DNA of 64,000 nucleotides from a virus (Duplodnaviria; Caudoviricetes), in IMG/VR virus record IMGVR_UViG_3300046495_000014, positions 21,602 to 85,601 of that record; one strand, 5' to 3'. Shown here one piece after another: positions 20,801 to 31,457 of the stretch. Position 1 is the first letter of the stretch. Every line of letters begins with the position of its first letter. The translations under genes and the position numbers were made by a program. Under the pieces are notes generated by a model. The model did not search any database and was not told where the DNA came from. It saw only the letters and a list, made by a program, of their open reading frames with translations.

Positions 20801-21694
20801 GAGTGGACTCGAGATCGACGCCGTTGTGGAGACCGCGGTGCCGTCCCGTCCGTTCCCGCTACTGTCCGCGGTGGACCCTTCATTCAAATCCCAAAACAGC
20901 CACGCCCCGGTCGGGAATACTGTCTTGCTCGACTGCGCGATCAGCGCCGCGTCCGACATGGCCGACGCCATCATTCCGACGTACTGCAACGAGCCGCCCG
21001 TCGACAGCCCCAAGTTGAATTCGGTAAACGTGGCGGTAGTCGTGCTCAGGTTGACCACGCCCCACGTTATAGCCCCGCCAGGAGTCGTGATTACTCCGGC
21101 ACTAACGGTTGAAGCGTTCGTGAATTTGATGATGACGAAGACCCAGCCCGCCGTGTTGTAAGCGTACGGCGCGATCGTATAGTCACCTTCAAATGCCGCG
21201 CGGAGTTTCAGGAACCCGACTTCGGCCTTGATCGAGTATTTCGAGTCTGGTGCGGGGTAGTCGCCGGTGCATAACTCAAGGGTATTGTGTAGGCCTGCGG
21301 CCGAATCCAGCTTGAGCCACGCGAATACGGTCAGACCGGCAGCGGCGTCGGGAAACGTGTCGACGCGATAGATCTGCCCGGTCCCGTACGGAATTTTGGC
21401 GCCGTTCGCGACGATTACAGACGATCGAACGGCTGCGCCAGCGACGCAGTTGCGAACGATAGGGGACGCGGAATGCGTAGCCGTCGCTGCCATTGCCTCA
21501 GGCTTCGCTAGCCTAGGCCGTAGCACTGGCGTCGCGTAGCAACTGACGTCGTTCGGATTCCCGAGGTAGCCGTCCGTCGTCGTGACGATGGAGCTACGCG
21601 CGTTCGGAATCGTAGGAGTAGGCAAGGGCGCGCTTCGCAGCGTGCCCTGTGCCGTACTCATGCTCCCGCCGGGTGGGGTCCGGATTATCGCCAA
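17888..21694 (-). CDS. Large fibre-like protein: LamG-like domain, Asp-box propeller, repetitive shaft
   Basis: 1268 aa; six Asp-box-like motifs (STDGGETW, SSNGINW, TTDGINW, SDDGGATW, SQNGTAW, TVDGVNW); Ala/Ser/Thr/Val repeats. Confidence 0.75.
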   Translation of the reverse strand: MAIIRTPPGGSMSTAQGTLRSAPLPTPTIPNARSSIVTTTDGYLGNPNDVSCYATPVLRPRLAKPEAMAATATHSASPIVRNCVAGAAVRSSVIVANGAKIPYGTGQIYRVDTFPDAAAGLTVFAWLKLDSAAGLHNTLELCTGDYPAPDSKYSIKAEVGFLKLRAAFEGDYTIAPYAYNTAGWVFVIIKFTNASTVSAGVITTPGGAITWGVVNLSTTTATFTEFNLGLSTGGSLQYVGMMASAMSDAALIAQSSKTVFPTGAWLFWDLNEGSTADSSGNGRDGTAVSTTASISSPLTSKTYSGPAVTFASKALPASGDWQALATDGAGMWVAVQTFGIPAYSTDGGETWLSCNSTNITSQPWCLCAYGLVGGNPLWIIVAGSTGGAQDQYLTSSNGINWTARTLPVAATWYTFAFGPTSGKFILAAFVDADSYNTTDGINWNSVPLNEGHHWQDTIEVGSRWVIEGTGPFEQVSDDGGATWAELGWGDDGVAIGHQTWVGIANLGGTWVSPCSETDYAGYATSQNGTAWEYQTWPLTGVGARAIAASATKIIVVPGTGSVAAQTVDGVNWCNVTLPFSGTYSVIKSGGGKWVALASGSAYAAVGVDDTNPATVCTLTPVLRWSVISAISVASGSVAATVVNPATVSRSVGPTGLSGTSAQSSAARSRFLGPLAGGLTFGESPVGRSGISGPTALTVQATPTPSSILRATGATPTLVLGATTPGLTTRYVSQMAIALGAAQAGTARLVNVPTPGVVAGSVASCVASPTAAQRAVGASVVGGSTALASSVRLLANGQAGGAAAAAIAPANKSRTPGPTVGFVQCSAVGSNVGRSVTAPGLSESMTPTSSVRALSVGSPVTIAGAVASCVVNPAATQRAVGTQTVAVTTAVGSGVRGPVVGQVSGTVTASMSSASEVRSVGSPTTTAGSVAACVVGSATTVRAVGATTGSIGATVVGAATQRAAGTQSNAMTPTIGSANRAGIMPSESIAVSTGLSSAKTAPAVSSTATMTVFAWWPVQIQRATGGIITSAGAVVSVVVSSAGRQRSVGAVGTAGTSIATMVSVVQARSVGGFGVSVAWSVAPTVRQRATGVETGGATSSPTSASRSRWAGIEQGFLSWSAVPIVLLRASTSPVAGVGILPSATGRVRTTSPTGAGAAINPVASGRQRATTAVVLSSTSFATAAPVSRGRAVGPVAAALSWVIQATSATVFRSVSSPVVIHTTTNPVPIPWSITGSPIQFVAIVGEPAELVEIEGRPSVWVSITGRLTR

Positions 21695-25360: not shown

Positions 25361-25747
25361 TTAGGATTGGCCCGCGACCAAGTATTCTACGCGGCCGACG
25401 CCTTCGACTTCTAAGAGAGTCAACGGCGCCGCTTCCGCGAATTCTGTCACCAGTAGTCCGTCGACCATTACGACGGCGGTCGTCGATCCCGCTGTCATAC
25501 GAATCGACAACGGCCCGTCCGTGCGCACGTACAGCAAGCGCCCGGCTGTTACCGGACCCGCTGCGCCGACGCCCGGCATCGCGACGTACGCGCTAGCGCT
25601 GTTCACGTTCATCAGTCCCGCGGGACTAGACACGGCGTAGTCGTTATTGGTCGCCACCAGCGGGATCGTCGTTTCCGCGCCCGGAAAGGCTACGGACGAC
25701 CCGGACGGGCCCAGTACGATCACGCCGGATAGCGAGATTTGGCCCAT
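25361..25747 (-). CDS. Hypothetical structural protein
   Basis: 128 aa, TAATG-coupled. Confidence 0.6.
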   Translation of the reverse strand: MGQISLSGVIVLGPSGSSVAFPGAETTIPLVATNNDYAVSSPAGLMNVNSASAYVAMPGVGAAGPVTAGRLLYVRTDGPLSIRMTAGSTTAVVMVDGLLVTEFAEAAPLTLLEVEGVGRVEYLVAGQS

Positions 25748-26052
25748 TACGCGCCTAGCTTGTACGGCTTCGCGCCGTTACCCAAGGAGCCGACGCCGCC
25801 GGGTCTGGTAGCAGGGGGAGCGGCTTGGGGGATAAGTCCGCCCGGGGCCGCGTCCTGCGTGTTGTGGTCCGGCTTCGCCTTCGACTGCGCCCGACTGTTG
25901 TTGATTAGATCGCCCGATAGTTTCGCGGCCGTGCGGGTTCCGCCCGGGTTCGCGCCGAAATCATTGCCTGCCATAGATCCTCCTACGCTGCCGCCTTTGC
26001 CATCGCCGAACGGGCTGGTCTTCCCGTCGCCGGATTGTGATCCCTGTTGCAT
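25747..26052 (-). CDS. Small Gly/Pro-rich, probably disordered protein
   Basis: 101 aa, AGGAGG SD; ends GAKPYKLGA. Confidence 0.65.
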   Translation of the reverse strand: MQQGSQSGDGKTSPFGDGKGGSVGGSMAGNDFGANPGGTRTAAKLSGDLINNSRAQSKAKPDHNTQDAAPGGLIPQAAPPATRPGGVGSLGNGAKPYKLGA

Positions 26053-26073: not shown

Positions 26074-26313
26074 CTAGCCGACCCGGAACGGTTTCTTGCC
26101 CGCGTCGGACGGTGGCCACGGAATCGGTTGAGACTTCGTGGGGGCCGTATTCTGACCGATACCCGGGGCCCATTTCTCAGGGGTTCCGCCCGTAGCCTCG
26201 ACCGTCAACGGATTCGCCGGACCTACCTGCGGCGCGCGTGGTTCCTGGAACCGACCGTTCGCACCCCGAACGATCGGCAACGGTTGATCTAGTCGAAACG
26301 GAGCGTTGGCCAT
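26074..26313 (-). CDS. Small Pro-rich protein
   Basis: 79 aa; TGA-TACCGT box (26320-26325) 6 nt before ATG; ends GKKPFRVG. Confidence 0.65.
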   Translation of the reverse strand: MANAPFRLDQPLPIVRGANGRFQEPRAPQVGPANPLTVEATGGTPEKWAPGIGQNTAPTKSQPIPWPPSDAGKKPFRVG

Positions 26314-26390: not shown

Positions 26391-26567
26391 ATGGCCAAAC
26401 CGAAATCCCAGCCCGTACCCGCCGACGACGGGGGGGCTTCGTCGTTCCTCGACTCCGACGCCGCTGAACTACTCCCGAAGAAGTCCTACATCGTCGCCCC
26501 TGCGGACCAGACCGATCCGAACTGGAAGATGACCGACGAACAGTTGGCGGAATTATTGAAAGACTAG
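26391..26567 (+). CDS. Small acidic protein convergent with MuF gene (start reassigned to MAKPKS)
   Basis: 58 aa; conserved box upstream. Confidence 0.6.
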   Translation: MAKPKSQPVPADDGGASSFLDSDAAELLPKKSYIVAPADQTDPNWKMTDEQLAELLKD

Positions 26568-29179
26568 CCCGGTCGCGACAACAGTTCCGCGTCGATCATT
26601 ACGGTTCGCCCGGGGGGGATTCGAACCCGAACCCGCGTCGGGGTAAAGCCTTCGACAGATCCCGTAATCACGTGGGACCGACCCGACCGCGTTACGACGT
26701 ACGACACAGTGTCCCCGACCGCGAACCGCGACACCAGCGGTCCACGCGATCGAGGCGTTCTAGCTGGCGGGGTCGTTATTTCCTTCGGCACGTCGGGGTT
26801 CTTCGCGCCGCGAACTACGATTTTGGCAGCCAGTCGGGCTTGATCGTCAGTAGCGCCTACCTTCATCGCCGCCTTCTTCGCCGCCCGTTCCTTCGCCCGC
26901 GTCGCGGTGTATTCGTCCAGGCGCGCCAGGGTTTCGGGGGACTTGAGGTTGAGTTCCAGATTGATAAGCCCCATCTCGGAATACCCGTGCGATCGTAGGA
27001 ATTCCTTGCCGACCGCGATCCCGTTGAATTCCAGCGCGGCCAATTCCTGAATCGACTTCACGTCTTTTATGATTCCGATCAAGTCGGTCGTGCTGATCGG
27101 TTCGGGGGTCGCCGGTTCCTTCATTACTTCCCCGACCTTGTTGACCTGCTTTCGCGTACCCTGCGCCCATCGCGAGAATTCTTGCTTGAACGCGCCCAGC
27201 TGGTTCGGGTTCTGCAACTCGAATCCCATCGACGGCCAAACGTACTGCCCATCCCACGCGGCGTGCGTTTCCACGACGTCGACGCCTAGCTTCCGATACG
27301 TCGCGAACTGGCTTTCGATCATGCGACTGCCCATCCCGCCGTCCTTCAGACTATCGGGGAGCGTAAACAGATTGTGGCCGACGCTAAGTTTCCCGTCGGA
27401 TGTTCGAGTGTACGACCTACTGAGCGAACCCGTTTTCCCGGTATTCGGATCGACGATCTTCGCCGACATGAAGAACTTTGAGGCGTCGGTGTAATGGTAC
27501 GCCCGGATCTGCGCGTCCTGGATCTCAACCCCGCTTAGCTCGTGCAGTCCTAACACGCCGCTGAAATCCCGAGCGTCGAATGAACGCCCGAAGACAACCT
27601 GCGACCCGTCGTTGATTTGGGTCGGCCCTTGATTGACGGTTACTTCGAACCCATTCGCGGCTTCGAACGATAGCGAATGCTGCTCGCCGATCGGAATCCG
27701 TTTCGCGATCGGCGGTTCTCCCGTCGTCCGTTTAGCCGTCGGATCGACAGTCGCCACCGCCGCCTGCGCGGCTTCGATGTACTTCGCCGGAACCTTCGCT
27801 TCGACCACGGTCGTCTTCGCGGCCTTCGCCTTCACCGTCGCTCGGGATTCGGCGATCCCCGCTTCGCGGATCGTCGCCTGCAACCGATCGAGGTTAGCCA
27901 CGACGGTCTCGACCTGCCGAGCCTGTCGCGTTTCAGCTTCCACCGCGCGTCGGGCTTCCGTAGCCTGTCGCGCCGCTATCTGGGCTTGTTCTTCCGCGGC
28001 CATCGCAGCGCGTAGTCGTTCGCGCCCTAGCTCCAACGAAGACGGCTGACGCGTCGCTCCCGGTTCCCCGGCGATCGTTCGCGCTACTGTCGCCGCCGCG
28101 ATCGACGGACGACCCTGCGCGGGGGGTGGCACCGGGGCGGCTACCGGCTGCGGTGCAGGCGTCTGCTCTTGCGCTACGGACGGCGCGGGCTTCCCGATCA
28201 GTTCGACGGGTACAGTCGTCATCAGCGGACGACCGGGGGGCGATCCCTTCCGCCCTTCCATCGCCCAGCGCTGGGCGATTTCCGAATCGGTCTTCTGTTT
28301 CAGATTCTCAGGGATCGGCCATTCGATGTGGTGAGGCACGATGATTTCGCGATCGTTCGGGCGGTTCGGTGGAGTCATGTACGACCCGAACCACGACGCG
28401 AACGGTTCGGTCATCCGCCGTATCTGACCGTGGACCGCGTAACTATCGGCGCCCGTCCTATCGTCGAACGTCGCGCACAAGATCCGCAGCATCTGGCCGC
28501 CGGTCTGCTCGTTGATCTCGAGTAACGCGTTGTTGCCCGCTACGTTGTGGGCTCCCATTAGCTCGGTGCGAACTATCCGTTCCGCCCAGTACTGCGGCGC
28601 GGCCTGTAGGAACGGCGATCCGGTTACCAACTGCGACCGTACGTCGTCCCACGGCGTACCCGCCACCAGCGACGTCTGCAACGTTCGCTCGAAATGGCCG
28701 ATCACCCCTTCGCCGTATCGCTCGATCACGCCCGGGTTCCCGGGGTGATCCGGATCCCCAGCGATGCGGCGAAGGACCGACGCGTTCGCGCCCGACACGG
28801 CGGGGTCTAGGACCGCCGCTGTTCGGATCCCCAGGCCTTCCCCAGCGACGCCGCGGAACTTCGCTTCGGCGTGGTTGAGGTACGACACAGTGGCCTTCGC
28901 GCTGTTCGTCGCCACGACGTTCGACGCCCCGACGACCGTCCCGAGTAAGTCCCGCTTGGTCATCTGCAAGACAGTCTCGACCTGCTTTAGCGTCGCCCGC
29001 ATCTGAACGGCGGTGAACGTTCGGTCGTTCGGGGGTATCCCATGCAAACGCTTCTTCAGATCCGCTTGCGACCGTTTCATTAGGTCGACCACCGCCGTGT
29101 TCGACGTCCGCGCCGCGTATCCCAGCGCCGCGCGCCGGGCCGCGTCTAATATCGATATCGGATCGCGGACGGTAGGCAC
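26564..29179 (-). CDS. MuF-like head morphogenesis protein with GNAT-like and SH3/KOW-like C-terminal extension
   Basis: MuF motifs RIVRTE, DDRT, PPNRPNDR; later LPDSLKDGGMGS...RKLG...DGQYVWPSMGF; TAACCT box 6 nt before GTG. Confidence 0.75.
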   Translation of the reverse strand: MPTVRDPISILDAARRAALGYAARTSNTAVVDLMKRSQADLKKRLHGIPPNDRTFTAVQMRATLKQVETVLQMTKRDLLGTVVGASNVVATNSAKATVSYLNHAEAKFRGVAGEGLGIRTAAVLDPAVSGANASVLRRIAGDPDHPGNPGVIERYGEGVIGHFERTLQTSLVAGTPWDDVRSQLVTGSPFLQAAPQYWAERIVRTELMGAHNVAGNNALLEINEQTGGQMLRILCATFDDRTGADSYAVHGQIRRMTEPFASWFGSYMTPPNRPNDREIIVPHHIEWPIPENLKQKTDSEIAQRWAMEGRKGSPPGRPLMTTVPVELIGKPAPSVAQEQTPAPQPVAAPVPPPAQGRPSIAAATVARTIAGEPGATRQPSSLELGRERLRAAMAAEEQAQIAARQATEARRAVEAETRQARQVETVVANLDRLQATIREAGIAESRATVKAKAAKTTVVEAKVPAKYIEAAQAAVATVDPTAKRTTGEPPIAKRIPIGEQHSLSFEAANGFEVTVNQGPTQINDGSQVVFGRSFDARDFSGVLGLHELSGVEIQDAQIRAYHYTDASKFFMSAKIVDPNTGKTGSLSRSYTRTSDGKLSVGHNLFTLPDSLKDGGMGSRMIESQFATYRKLGVDVVETHAAWDGQYVWPSMGFELQNPNQLGAFKQEFSRWAQGTRKQVNKVGEVMKEPATPEPISTTDLIGIIKDVKSIQELAALEFNGIAVGKEFLRSHGYSEMGLINLELNLKSPETLARLDEYTATRAKERAAKKAAMKVGATDDQARLAAKIVVRGAKNPDVPKEITTPPARTPRSRGPLVSRFAVGDTVSYVVTRSGRSHVITGSVEGFTPTRVRVRIPPGRTVMIDAELLSRPG

Positions 29180-29188
29180 CCGCCTAGG

Positions 29189-29314
29189 TTACACGTCGGA
29201 TCCAGGATCGACCACCTCGACCGCTACGGTAGGCTCGCGCGGTACGTCGACGACGACCGCCAGATCCCCAGTAACTTCGACCGTGACAGTAGGCTCCGCC
29301 GCCGCTTCAGTCAC
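29189..29314 (-). CDS. 41-aa Val/Glu-rich micro-protein
   Basis: Hand-translated; GTGA-coupled to upstream gene. Confidence 0.5.
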   Translation of the reverse strand: MTEAAAEPTVTVEVTGDLAVVVDVPREPTVAVEVVDPGSDV

Positions 29315-29685
29315 GGAGCCACCGATAGATAGAACGCCGCAGCGCGTCGCACGCCGTCCGGGATCGGGGTAGTAGCGGGGGGCGTCGGTTCCCGGTGGTA
29401 GATCAGTTCCGGAATTATCCGGTACCTACCCGGGGTGACCGTTTCGAGCCCCGCGACGTCGAAGACGTGTCGAACCACCAGCTTGTCGATCCGCTGTTGT
29501 AGGATCGTCGTCGTCCACACCGCGTCCACGTCCGACCGCGCACCGATACGCACGCGGAGTCGAACGGACGTCACCAGCGATAGGTCCAGCGCGTCGGGTC
29601 CCGGTCGGATCTCGCACGTCAGACCTTCGGGCGCTTTAGCCCGCGCGAATATAGACGGCTGGGCGAACTGTCGATCTGTGATCAC
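29311..29685 (-). CDS. Small beta-rich structural protein (start reassigned to GTG 29685)
   Basis: GTGA overlap with portal stop; 124 aa. Confidence 0.6.
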   Translation of the reverse strand: MITDRQFAQPSIFARAKAPEGLTCEIRPGPDALDLSLVTSVRLRVRIGARSDVDAVWTTTILQQRIDKLVVRHVFDVAGLETVTPGRYRIIPELIYHREPTPPATTPIPDGVRRAAAFYLSVAP

Positions 29686-31457
29686 GGGGTCCTCGCGGGG
29701 TCGGGTACTTCGCCGCCGATAGGGGGGAACATGGCCGAGTTGGCCGCCGATTGCTGCGCGGCCTTCGCAGCGGTTTCGCGCTGAACGCGGGCCCACTCTT
29801 CCTGACCGTCTCGATCGTGCGCGTTCGAGTGCAGTTCGACCGCCGTCTGTTGGCTCATGATCGGAACCGAACCCGCCGCCAGCGATAGCGCTTGGGCTTC
29901 TTCCTGGTCGTCTTTGGACGTCGGCTGGAAGTAGGGGCCCCACTCCAACCAGATCCGACCGTTACCAGGCGACCGATCCGTGACCTGCGTCAGCATCTTC
30001 CCAGTCGGCGCCCCGTCGGGCCCTAGTTCCGGTATCGACACGATCTTCGGCGGTAGGTTCACGGCGAATTCGATCGGTTCTTCCCCTACCTCGACGCCTT
30101 CTTCGTCGTACGTAGGCACGTGAACGTACCGGCTCTCATCCGACGCCGCTGCCGGATCCGGGGCGTATCGACGAACGAACGCCGTAATCTGTTCCAGCGT
30201 CGACGTGATGGCGCGCCCGTACTGGTACCGGAAGATCGAGCACTTCACCAGCATCGGGGAGTAAACCATTTTGAGAGCCACGGACGACGTACCCGCTGCC
30301 GCGATCGTATTCGGATCGGGCGATACGCATTCGGTGACTTCCAGGATCTGCGCCCGGCTGTTATCGACGAGCGAGATCCCCGCCGCTATCGACGACCCGG
30401 ACACCTCGAGGTATTTAGCATCCCCGTCCTTACCGGTTCGCAACGCGTTGTCGCTACCCTTCTGGACGACGGCCTTGCCGATGTCTTCTTCGTCCATACG
30501 CAGGACTAGCGTCGGATCCAGATTCTTGATCCCGCCCTGAACGTTGACGCTGTTCAGCATGTCGATCGACACGAGTTGTTCGTAGGCCACGGCGTAATCC
30601 GGAGCGCCGTCGCAGCTACTGTCATCGTCGTCGTCGGGTAGGTTCTCGATCCAGCAGAAATGGCACACCCCGTCGTTGTGCTCGAAAGACTGGGCCTGAT
30701 CGATGTCCCAATAGTCGGGGGTCTTCTTGTCGACCTCTACCGGCTTGAACGTAACGTCGGCGGTCTTCGTCCAGTCGCGTCGGCGCCACATCCACTTCTG
30801 TTTCCCCGACGTCGCTGTCGCTTTCGACTGGTACAGTTCGACGACGTGCGCCGGTATCCGTTGGGCTTCGTCTTCCCATTCCAGGCAGTGGATATGGTAC
30901 CCCTTGTGAACCTGCATCCGAACGTCGCCGTCGACGAGCGCCCAGGATATCCCGACCGTGCCGCAGCGCCCGCCTAGGTTCCGCGCGCGGATCATGTTGA
31001 TCTCGAGGCCCATCGCGTCGGATAGCGCCTGCGCCCAGTCCTGCGTGATCGGATCCTCGGAACGGAACTGCGGGAATCGGCCGTAACCGAATACCATCCC
31101 AGAAAACGACGTTACGATCTTCCGCGCCAGTCGGTACGGCGTGGACGGTCGGCGTTGGTCCAATGGAACGTACGTAGACGGAACAGCGCCGGACAGTAGC
31201 GGCTGATTCGATAGCTTCCCGGGGCGAATCATCCGCCCGTTCATGTCGAACAACTTATAGTCGTGGTTCGTCGCGGTGAAGAAGCTATCCCGGTATTGGA
31301 GTTCCCGCACGCGTTCCCCGTTGAACAACGCGTGCGCGTCGAAGTCCGGGCCTAGCGTCGTCAAATCCAGTCCGAATGAGGATTCGGTTTGAATTACGGG
31401 TCCGGCGATCGCGGGACCCGGCGCCGCCAACGGCATCTTGTAAACGTTCGCAGCCAT
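29682..31457 (-). CDS. Portal protein
   Basis: 591 aa upstream of MuF; SPP1-like layout (SSVALKMVYSPM). Confidence 0.8.
   Translation of the reverse strand: MAANVYKMPLAAPGPAIAGPVIQTESSFGLDLTTLGPDFDAHALFNGERVRELQYRDSFFTATNHDYKLFDMNGRMIRPGKLSNQPLLSGAVPSTYVPLDQRRPSTPYRLARKIVTSFSGMVFGYGRFPQFRSEDPITQDWAQALSDAMGLEINMIRARNLGGRCGTVGISWALVDGDVRMQVHKGYHIHCLEWEDEAQRIPAHVVELYQSKATATSGKQKWMWRRRDWTKTADVTFKPVEVDKKTPDYWDIDQAQSFEHNDGVCHFCWIENLPDDDDDSSCDGAPDYAVAYEQLVSIDMLNSVNVQGGIKNLDPTLVLRMDEEDIGKAVVQKGSDNALRTGKDGDAKYLEVSGSSIAAGISLVDNSRAQILEVTECVSPDPNTIAAAGTSSVALKMVYSPMLVKCSIFRYQYGRAITSTLEQITAFVRRYAPDPAAASDESRYVHVPTYDEEGVEVGEEPIEFAVNLPPKIVSIPELGPDGAPTGKMLTQVTDRSPGNGRIWLEWGPYFQPTSKDDQEEAQALSLAAGSVPIMSQQTAVELHSNAHDRDGQEEWARVQRETAAKAAQQSAANSAMFPPIGGEVPDPARTP

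Follow-up and report, generated by a model that had tools for sequence, protein, structure and literature searches.

Some enzymes travel in the phage head and enter the host with the genome; T4 Alt, the P1 Dar proteins, and the MuF toxins are examples. They act before phage gene expression, and enzymes carried and delivered in this way can decide whether host defences win. Among the described systems closest to the one considered here, the MuF-type minor head protein gp7 of SPP1 binds the portal and is present in 1-2 copies per capsid, according to Jamet et al. 2017 (PMC5576092). The same paper defined the MuF polymorphic toxins, which were found only in temperate phages, and an acetyl or acetyltransferase cargo is never mentioned in it (0 occurrences). 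In parallel, Iyer, Burroughs, Anand, de Souza, and Aravind 2017 (PMC5512222) described effectors fused to MuF or portal proteins, as well as GNATs within phage and plasmid polyvalent proteins, which they predicted to be injected protein modifiers. GNAT cargos have thus been predicted by comparative genomics (2017), and we found no experimental test of them in the searchable literature. Here, we analyse a stretch of 64,000 nucleotides (hereafter, the window) that comprises positions 21,602 to 85,601 of the IMG/VR virus record IMGVR_UViG_3300046495_000014, and in which one gene (26564..29179, minus strand) encodes an 871-residue protein with a predicted MuF-like N-terminus, a low-complexity linker, a GNAT-like domain, and an SH3-like tail. 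The protein joins a known kind, in which MuF or portal proteins bear an enzymatic cargo, and its GNAT domain comes from a large clade. We hold it to be moderately probable that it is a portal-associated, MuF-type minor head protein, whose flexible linker of ~165 residues carries a GNAT-fold cargo that is delivered into the host and acts early upon it.

A sequence-only reading of this DNA had treated 26564-29179 as one gene. The open reading frame (ORF) list and its translation bear this out, with a single open frame of 871 codons, and correct the strand to minus; a plus-strand reading of the same interval was rejected, as its frame is full of stops. The four parts that the sequence-only reading had distinguished all lie at roughly the residues it gave. 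The gene starts with GTG at 29179 and ends with a TAG stop at 26564-26566. The public record instead places the start at Met34, which yields a protein of 838 amino acids. Residues 1-33 are, however, conserved in the two closest relatives, P0003 and P0004, and the GTG at 29179 is therefore a better start than Met34 (29080..29179).

The GNAT-like domain comprises residues 490-775 (26855..27712, minus strand), is ordered from approximately residue 519, and was assigned as a divergent, acyl-CoA N-acyltransferase-like fold by profile and model. When 1.84 billion cluster representatives were searched exhaustively with HMMER, 549 proteins matched at E<=1e-3, 103 of them at E<=1e-10. Among the short relatives, 11 of 29 match the Pfam GNAT models Acetyltransf_7 or Acetyltransf_10 (best, 3.4e-6), and long relatives, such as P0016, show Pfam GNAT matches above the cut-off at homologous stretches; over the relatives as a whole, the models matched are Acetyltransf_7, Acetyltransf_10, and Acetyltransf_1. 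Against the PDB, the family profile gave four matches at E<=1, all of which are GNAT acetyltransferases, and the best of which, 2q0y (E 0.023), extends over motifs A and B. A candidate loop for binding the pyrophosphate of coenzyme A (CoA), corresponding to GNAT motif A (Q/R-x-x-G-x-G/A), was located by regular expression and profile alignment at K612-D-G-G615-M-G617 (27329..27346, minus strand). This stretch aligns to motif A of the solved GNATs 2q0y and 6k5m, and in the predicted model it lies between a β4-like strand and α3. Its first position is Lys instead of Gln or Arg, and the clade consensus is Q-G-x-G-x-G; among 175 family segments, 158 have a glycine at position 615, and 160 have a glycine or an alanine at position 617. 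Over the 175 domain copies, 12 residues are conserved in the clade (namely, R588, G596, H602, G615, G617, Y628, G632, G644, Y646, W648, G652, and F653), and this protein retains all 12. The GNAT-like motifs that the sequence-only reading had pointed out are real, and conservation within this large family is highest at these positions.

An AlphaFold2 model of the domain, made with the family alignment (predicted local distance difference test [pLDDT] 88; predicted template modelling [TM] score 0.86), shows the GNAT order of elements, including the split between β4 and β5 and the placement of α3 after the CoA loop; to this the model adds (i) ~80 inserted residues, mostly helical, that precede the last strand and (ii) a long C-terminal helix. 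Among the matches listed by Foldseek against the PDB, all are GNAT or GNAT-like, including NatC, Naa50, Naa10, TacT, AtaT, and the GNAT-like domain of ICL2. A Foldseek-independent scan (VIA) of 48,161 chains gave a similarly uniform result, with 49 of the 50 best rows being of acetyl- or acyl-transferase type (GNAT-type or p300/CBP histone acetyltransferase) and the sole exception being a designed fusion protein. The structure search that had been called for on this region thus returns almost only GNAT acyltransferases for the predicted model. The assignment is supported by the uniformity of this list together with the sequence links, rather than by any single score. The best structural matches, which include NatC, Naa50, and NatD, RimI, RimJ, and RimL, and the toxins TacT and AtaT, have the motif A loop in common with this domain, whereas they share only 7-15% identity with it and differ from it by the ~80-residue helical insert, the long C-terminal helix, and the tryptophan that replaces the motif-B tyrosine. 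Since the nearest solved folds are Nat/Rim-type N-acetyltransferases and tRNA-acetylating toxins, a protein or another α-amino substrate would be the most likely one. The look-alikes found in BFVD by structure are phage proteins that lack characterisation; the annotation "phage head morphogenesis domain" is attached to one of them, and two belong to the cultured Bacillus phages JL and CP-51.

The same domain recurs in fusion with head proteins. Among 70 mid-length relatives (428-979 residues), 34 carry Phage_Mu_F at E<=1e-3 and one carries an ART domain, while two portal fusions were found, one with Phage_portal_3 (P0017) and another with Portal_Mu. The GNAT domains of this protein (P0001) and of P0005 and P0008 align well, whereas BLASTP finds no alignment between their MuF parts; the cargo domains therefore behave like cassettes. 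Giant relatives, of up to 7,601 residues (P0013; also P0006, P0011, P0026, and P0060), hold 4-8 copies of the GNAT domain. In P0006 these copies are accompanied by a glutamine deamidase toxin (Gln_amidase) and an α/β hydrolase, and in P0016 by a 2H/Acb1-like phosphoesterase, so that the giant proteins look, by their domain content, like polyvalent or polymorphic effectors with multiplied GNAT modules. This is the context described for polyvalent-protein GNATs (PMC5512222), which the relatives share both through giant multi-effector proteins, where domains of the ART, glutamine deamidase, 2H phosphoesterase, and hydrolase types also occur, and through MuF and portal fusions; in contrast to polyvalent proteins, the protein studied here has a single effector domain. 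A search with the clade profile of the genome of Mycobacterium phage Alice, whose gp113 is a solo GNAT in the same paper, which has two GNAT families, returned nothing, in a comparison limited to one genome and run without a positive control. Short stand-alone forms of the domain exist as well. Seven of these (P0015, P0053, P0059, P0064, P0087, P0150, and P0103; alignment A2) begin with an N-terminal H-P-R-x-x-D-G-K/R-F/W motif followed by a run of glycines; this motif, which may be a processing or packaging signal, is absent from the protein of the window.

These fusions bear on where the domain would act. Both of its head-protein partners, MuF and portal, are portal-vertex proteins, and fusion to them puts the domain where assembly and packaging take place; N-terminal and ribosomal-protein acetyltransferases are among the nearest folds, with a spermidine acetyltransferase also listed. 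Each of these points would suit a GNAT that works in the producing cell or the prohead, where it would acetylate the N-termini or lysines of scaffold, capsid, or portal proteins, or else DNA-condensing polyamines, with the MuF part merely positioning it. We consider such an assembly role improbable, as the occurrence of the same domain in giant multi-effector proteins, alongside Gln_amidase, ART, and 2H/Acb1-like domains, and its existence as short stand-alone proteins are both easier to reconcile with conflict effectors than with an enzyme of assembly.

At the N-terminus, residues 1-324 (28208..29179, minus strand; core motif region, residues 170-294) form a divergent MuF-like head-morphogenesis domain, as identified with Pfam, PHROG, and hhalign. 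The protein itself matches Pfam Phage_Mu_F (PF04233) at 14.2 bits (E 0.073; residues 170-275, profile positions 10-106 of 112), which does not reach the gathering cut-off of 29.6 bits, and it matches phrog_18477 ("head morphogenesis") at E 0.0067. A transitive link is provided by P0007, to which the N-terminus aligns at 2e-140 and which in turn matches PF04233 at 1.5e-5. We also built an independent MuF profile by starting from P0005 and P0008, which both pass the Pfam cut-off, and adding no close relatives of this protein during its expansion. With hhalign, the N-termini of the protein's own lineage match this profile with a probability of 86% (E 4.7e-6; 69 columns, residues 218-286), and the aligned core corresponds to the MuF signature D-D-R-T ... 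H-G-Q ... P-P; HMMER alone gave only marginal domain scores of ~6-9 bits with the same profile. An earlier and very strong MuF profile score was discarded as an artefact of the close relative P0007 in the seed. Conservation of the N-terminus among the relatives reaches approximately residue 324, in agreement with the MuF domain of about 320 residues that had been proposed, and its assignment as a divergent MuF domain is supported by position together with the transitive and profile evidence.

The MuF-like domain is followed by a low-complexity linker, defined by composition (residues 325-489; 27713..28207, minus strand), which is poorly conserved and variable in length among the relatives. Its first part (residues 325-385) contains 20% Pro and 20% Ala, and its second part (residues 386-489), with 27% Ala, 12% Arg, and 12% Glu, is the Ala/Glu/Arg linker of the sequence-only reading. 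The close relative P0007 is without ~150 residues of this linker, and its GNAT domain begins at residue 361.

The position of the gene agrees with a MuF-type protein. Upstream of it lies a portal protein gene (29682..31457, minus strand; 591 residues), as indicated by phrog_64 (E 3.8e-11) and by Pfam SPP1_portal (26.6 bits; cut-off 25.5); in tblastn, its product matches genes annotated as portal in phages of Ralstonia and Komagataeibacter, with ~27% identity. Only two small ORFs separate the two genes, and the head module runs in one direction. The order of portal gene, small ORFs, and MuF-GNAT gene is common to four related metagenomic contigs (L002/L003, L004, L008, and L009); the portal/MuF order, which places MuF next to the portal gene here, is also kept in L010, a Mu-like contig that encodes Portal_Mu, then a MuF-GNAT protein, and then a Mu-like protease. 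Compared with the MuF minor head proteins SPP1 gp7 and Mu gpF, the protein shares the gene position after the portal and a core that aligns to MuF profiles, whereas it differs in scoring below the Pfam cut-off, in the replacement of the Cys-Arg-Cys, and in having ~550 extra C-terminal residues. An enzyme carried in the virion, as the sequence-only reading had inferred, would agree both with this position and with the repeated fusion of the same domain to MuF and portal proteins.

We infer the following course, from the packaging and ejection of the protein to its cofactor, substrate, and biological role. During prohead assembly, the MuF part would recruit a few copies of the protein to the portal, as for SPP1 gp7. 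The cargo would be packaged in the head and would leave with the DNA at infection, and the long linker may allow both its storage and its threading out. Once inside the host, the GNAT domain would transfer an acyl group from acetyl- or acyl-CoA to an amine of some host component, and so serve takeover or anti-defence early in infection. The basic, SH3-like tail may hold the cargo on DNA, on another nucleic acid, or on its target. If an activity and a target were found, they would hold for a large family, beyond one metagenomic phage. The material available for such work comprises the domain boundaries (residues 490-775), a confident model, invariant residues, hundreds of relatives, and a candidate partner gene.

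Several observations weigh against a delivered, MuF-borne acyltransferase. No Pfam or NCBIfam GNAT model matched this protein, even at E<=1. The Foldseek scores against the PDB are moderate (probability 0.9-1.0, E ~3e-3), and the best VIA row, the CoA complex 1yre (rmsd, i.e. root-mean-square deviation, 4.3 Å; 136 residues aligned), has a Z of 7.6, where values below 8 can reflect a common arrangement and are not decisive alone. The MuF core is without the typical Cys-Arg-Cys, with PPNRPNDRE standing where the consensus of the relatives has PPxxxxCR. Neither the GNAT domain nor its relative P0009 matched any cultured phage by tblastn against INPHARED (50,697 phage records). Finally, W648, an invariant tryptophan in the clade, occupies the position of the motif-B tyrosine of 2q0y. 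In GNATs, the motif-B tyrosine is the usual general acid; the chemistry of the clade may therefore differ or be absent, which makes catalysis plausible, but not guaranteed. Other conserved residues that are candidates for a catalytic role are H602, Y628, Y646, and R588.

Three of these features, namely the tryptophan at the motif-B position across the clade, a motif A that starts with Lys-Asp here as against the Q-G of the clade, and the failure of any GNAT hidden Markov model to recognise the protein, would also be expected of a module that is non-catalytic and serves as a ligand- or protein-binding domain, or as a purely structural, head-internal one. We think this unlikely, as the Gly-x-Gly of the CoA loop and R588, H602, Y628, Y646, and W648 are conserved over 175 copies, which is the pattern of an active site and not of decay.

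The sequence-only reading had brought up the MuF polymorphic toxins, and this frame fits poorly. With those toxins (PMC5576092; see also the work on the APK domain, PMC12226406) the protein shares a MuF N-terminus and a swappable C-terminal enzymatic domain, and both TacT and AtaT are among its fold matches, so that a bactericidal or bacteriostatic GNAT toxin for bacterial competition, which might acetylate aminoacyl-tRNA in the manner of TacT and AtaT, with the product of a neighbouring 58-residue gene as its immunity protein, would match the class. Yet MuF toxins are reported exclusively in temperate phages, and here neither a tyrosine integrase (PF00589) nor a serine recombinase (PF07508) was matched in the 85.6-kb record, which is rated 93% complete and of which 7% may be missing. 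Moreover, many other GNATs score at least as well as TacT and AtaT, and in contrast to the MuF toxins there is no co-directional immunity gene. Unlike for TacT- and AtaT-type toxins, no antitoxin gene of the ribbon-helix-helix (RHH) type is seen by eye among the neighbouring small ORFs: those of 112-122 and 41 residues upstream and the two Gly/Pro-rich ones downstream were considered as antitoxins and rejected, having no Pfam match and being unlike RHH antitoxins by eye.

The 58-residue gene itself (26391..26567, plus strand) is convergent with the MuF-GNAT gene, its stop overlapping the stop of the latter by 4 nt, and it runs in the opposite direction within an otherwise one-direction head module. 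It encodes an acidic protein of no known family, which is a candidate partner or inhibitor. Its GC content by codon position (0.59/0.41/0.78) looks coding and is like that of the MuF gene, and its differences from the counterpart in L002 are distributed over the codon positions as 27/16/29. Homologous antisense ORFs occupy the same place in L002/L003, in L011, and in L004, where the ORF is cut by the contig end, and a word-based homologue search with the gene returned only itself. The antisense ORFs behind distant MuF-GNAT genes (L005, L007, and L008) look alike by eye, and a profile search did not support their homology. Being detectable in the closest lineage only, the gene may therefore track the phage lineage and not the GNAT domain. 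For an immunity gene, its opposite strand and the lack of a detectable counterpart beside distant MuF-GNAT genes count against the assignment, and a toxin used in bacterial competition is, in our estimate, the least probable of the readings considered here, and quite improbable.

A further reading keeps the delivery of the preferred one and gives the small gene a part in it. The clade would then form a class of its own, whose acyltransferases are delivered from the capsid and share a conserved target in the host, such as a component of defence or translation. In this phage lineage, the 58-residue protein would keep the enzyme in check in the producer cell, and the two would make up a phage-borne effector-inhibitor pair with no relation to RHH-GNAT toxin-antitoxin systems. 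We assign this extension only a small chance of being correct.

At the C-terminus, the GNAT-like domain is followed by a basic, Ala/Pro/Arg-rich spacer (residues 776-815; 26735..26854, minus strand), recognised by composition and by a pLDDT below 52 in the tail model, and then by a small β-barrel of 56 residues (residues 816-871; 26567..26734, minus strand), which AlphaFold2 and Foldseek indicate to be SH3/Tudor/KOW-like. The tail model, made from a two-sequence alignment, shows a barrel of 4-5 strands with a pLDDT of 80-90. Its Foldseek matches (probability 1.0, E ~0.02) comprise Tudor domains, the KOW domains of Spt5/NusG, the β domain of MscS, and a designed SH3 barrel, with superpositions at an rmsd of 2.0-2.7 Å over ~55 residues and a TM score by target of up to 0.80. 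While the fold superposes on these barrels, the tails of this protein and of P0003 match no Pfam family, with KOW, SH3, and Tudor included, at E<=5. For the SH3/KOW-like tail of the sequence-only reading, the SH3-like part is thus supported as a predicted fold, whereas KOW is not supported as a family. In PHROG, the tail matches phrog_2251, whose function is not known, at E 1.5e-4, and its structural neighbours in ESM-Atlas are phage proteins of 59-105 residues without known function. Among 153 family proteins, the tail is present only in P0001 and P0002 (this protein and its record form) and in P0003, and by this distribution it is a lineage-specific addition.

The record as a whole is metagenomic, with ~62% G+C, and none of the cultured phages searched resembles this one closely in sequence; a megablast search of the 50,697 phage records with the MuF-GNAT gene gave no match. 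Word-based homologue searches found just two relatives for the C-terminal half of the protein and none for the tail, a search for related loci with a closer GNAT alignment found two viral loci only, and a phmmer search of PDB sequences with the whole protein gave a chance match only.

Among the small ORFs nearby, the one of ~112-122 residues between the portal and MuF genes (29314..29679, minus strand) is syntenic in L002, L003, L004, and L008, where it has 109-112 residues, and has no Pfam match. A 41-residue ORF just upstream of the MuF-GNAT gene (29189..29314, minus strand) is in frame with it, the two being separated by one TAA and three codons; this arrangement is present in L004 and absent in L002, and is probably a coincidence. 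Downstream, two Gly/Pro-rich small proteins (26074..26313 and 25747..26052, both on the minus strand) end in G-K-K-P-F-R-V-G and G-A-K-P-Y-K-L-G-A, respectively, and a small ORF of L009 (5318..5536, plus strand) has the C-terminus G-R-K-P-F-A-L-G-G-G. From the likeness of these C-termini, a G-x-K-P-aromatic C-terminal motif therefore appears to be conserved across contigs.

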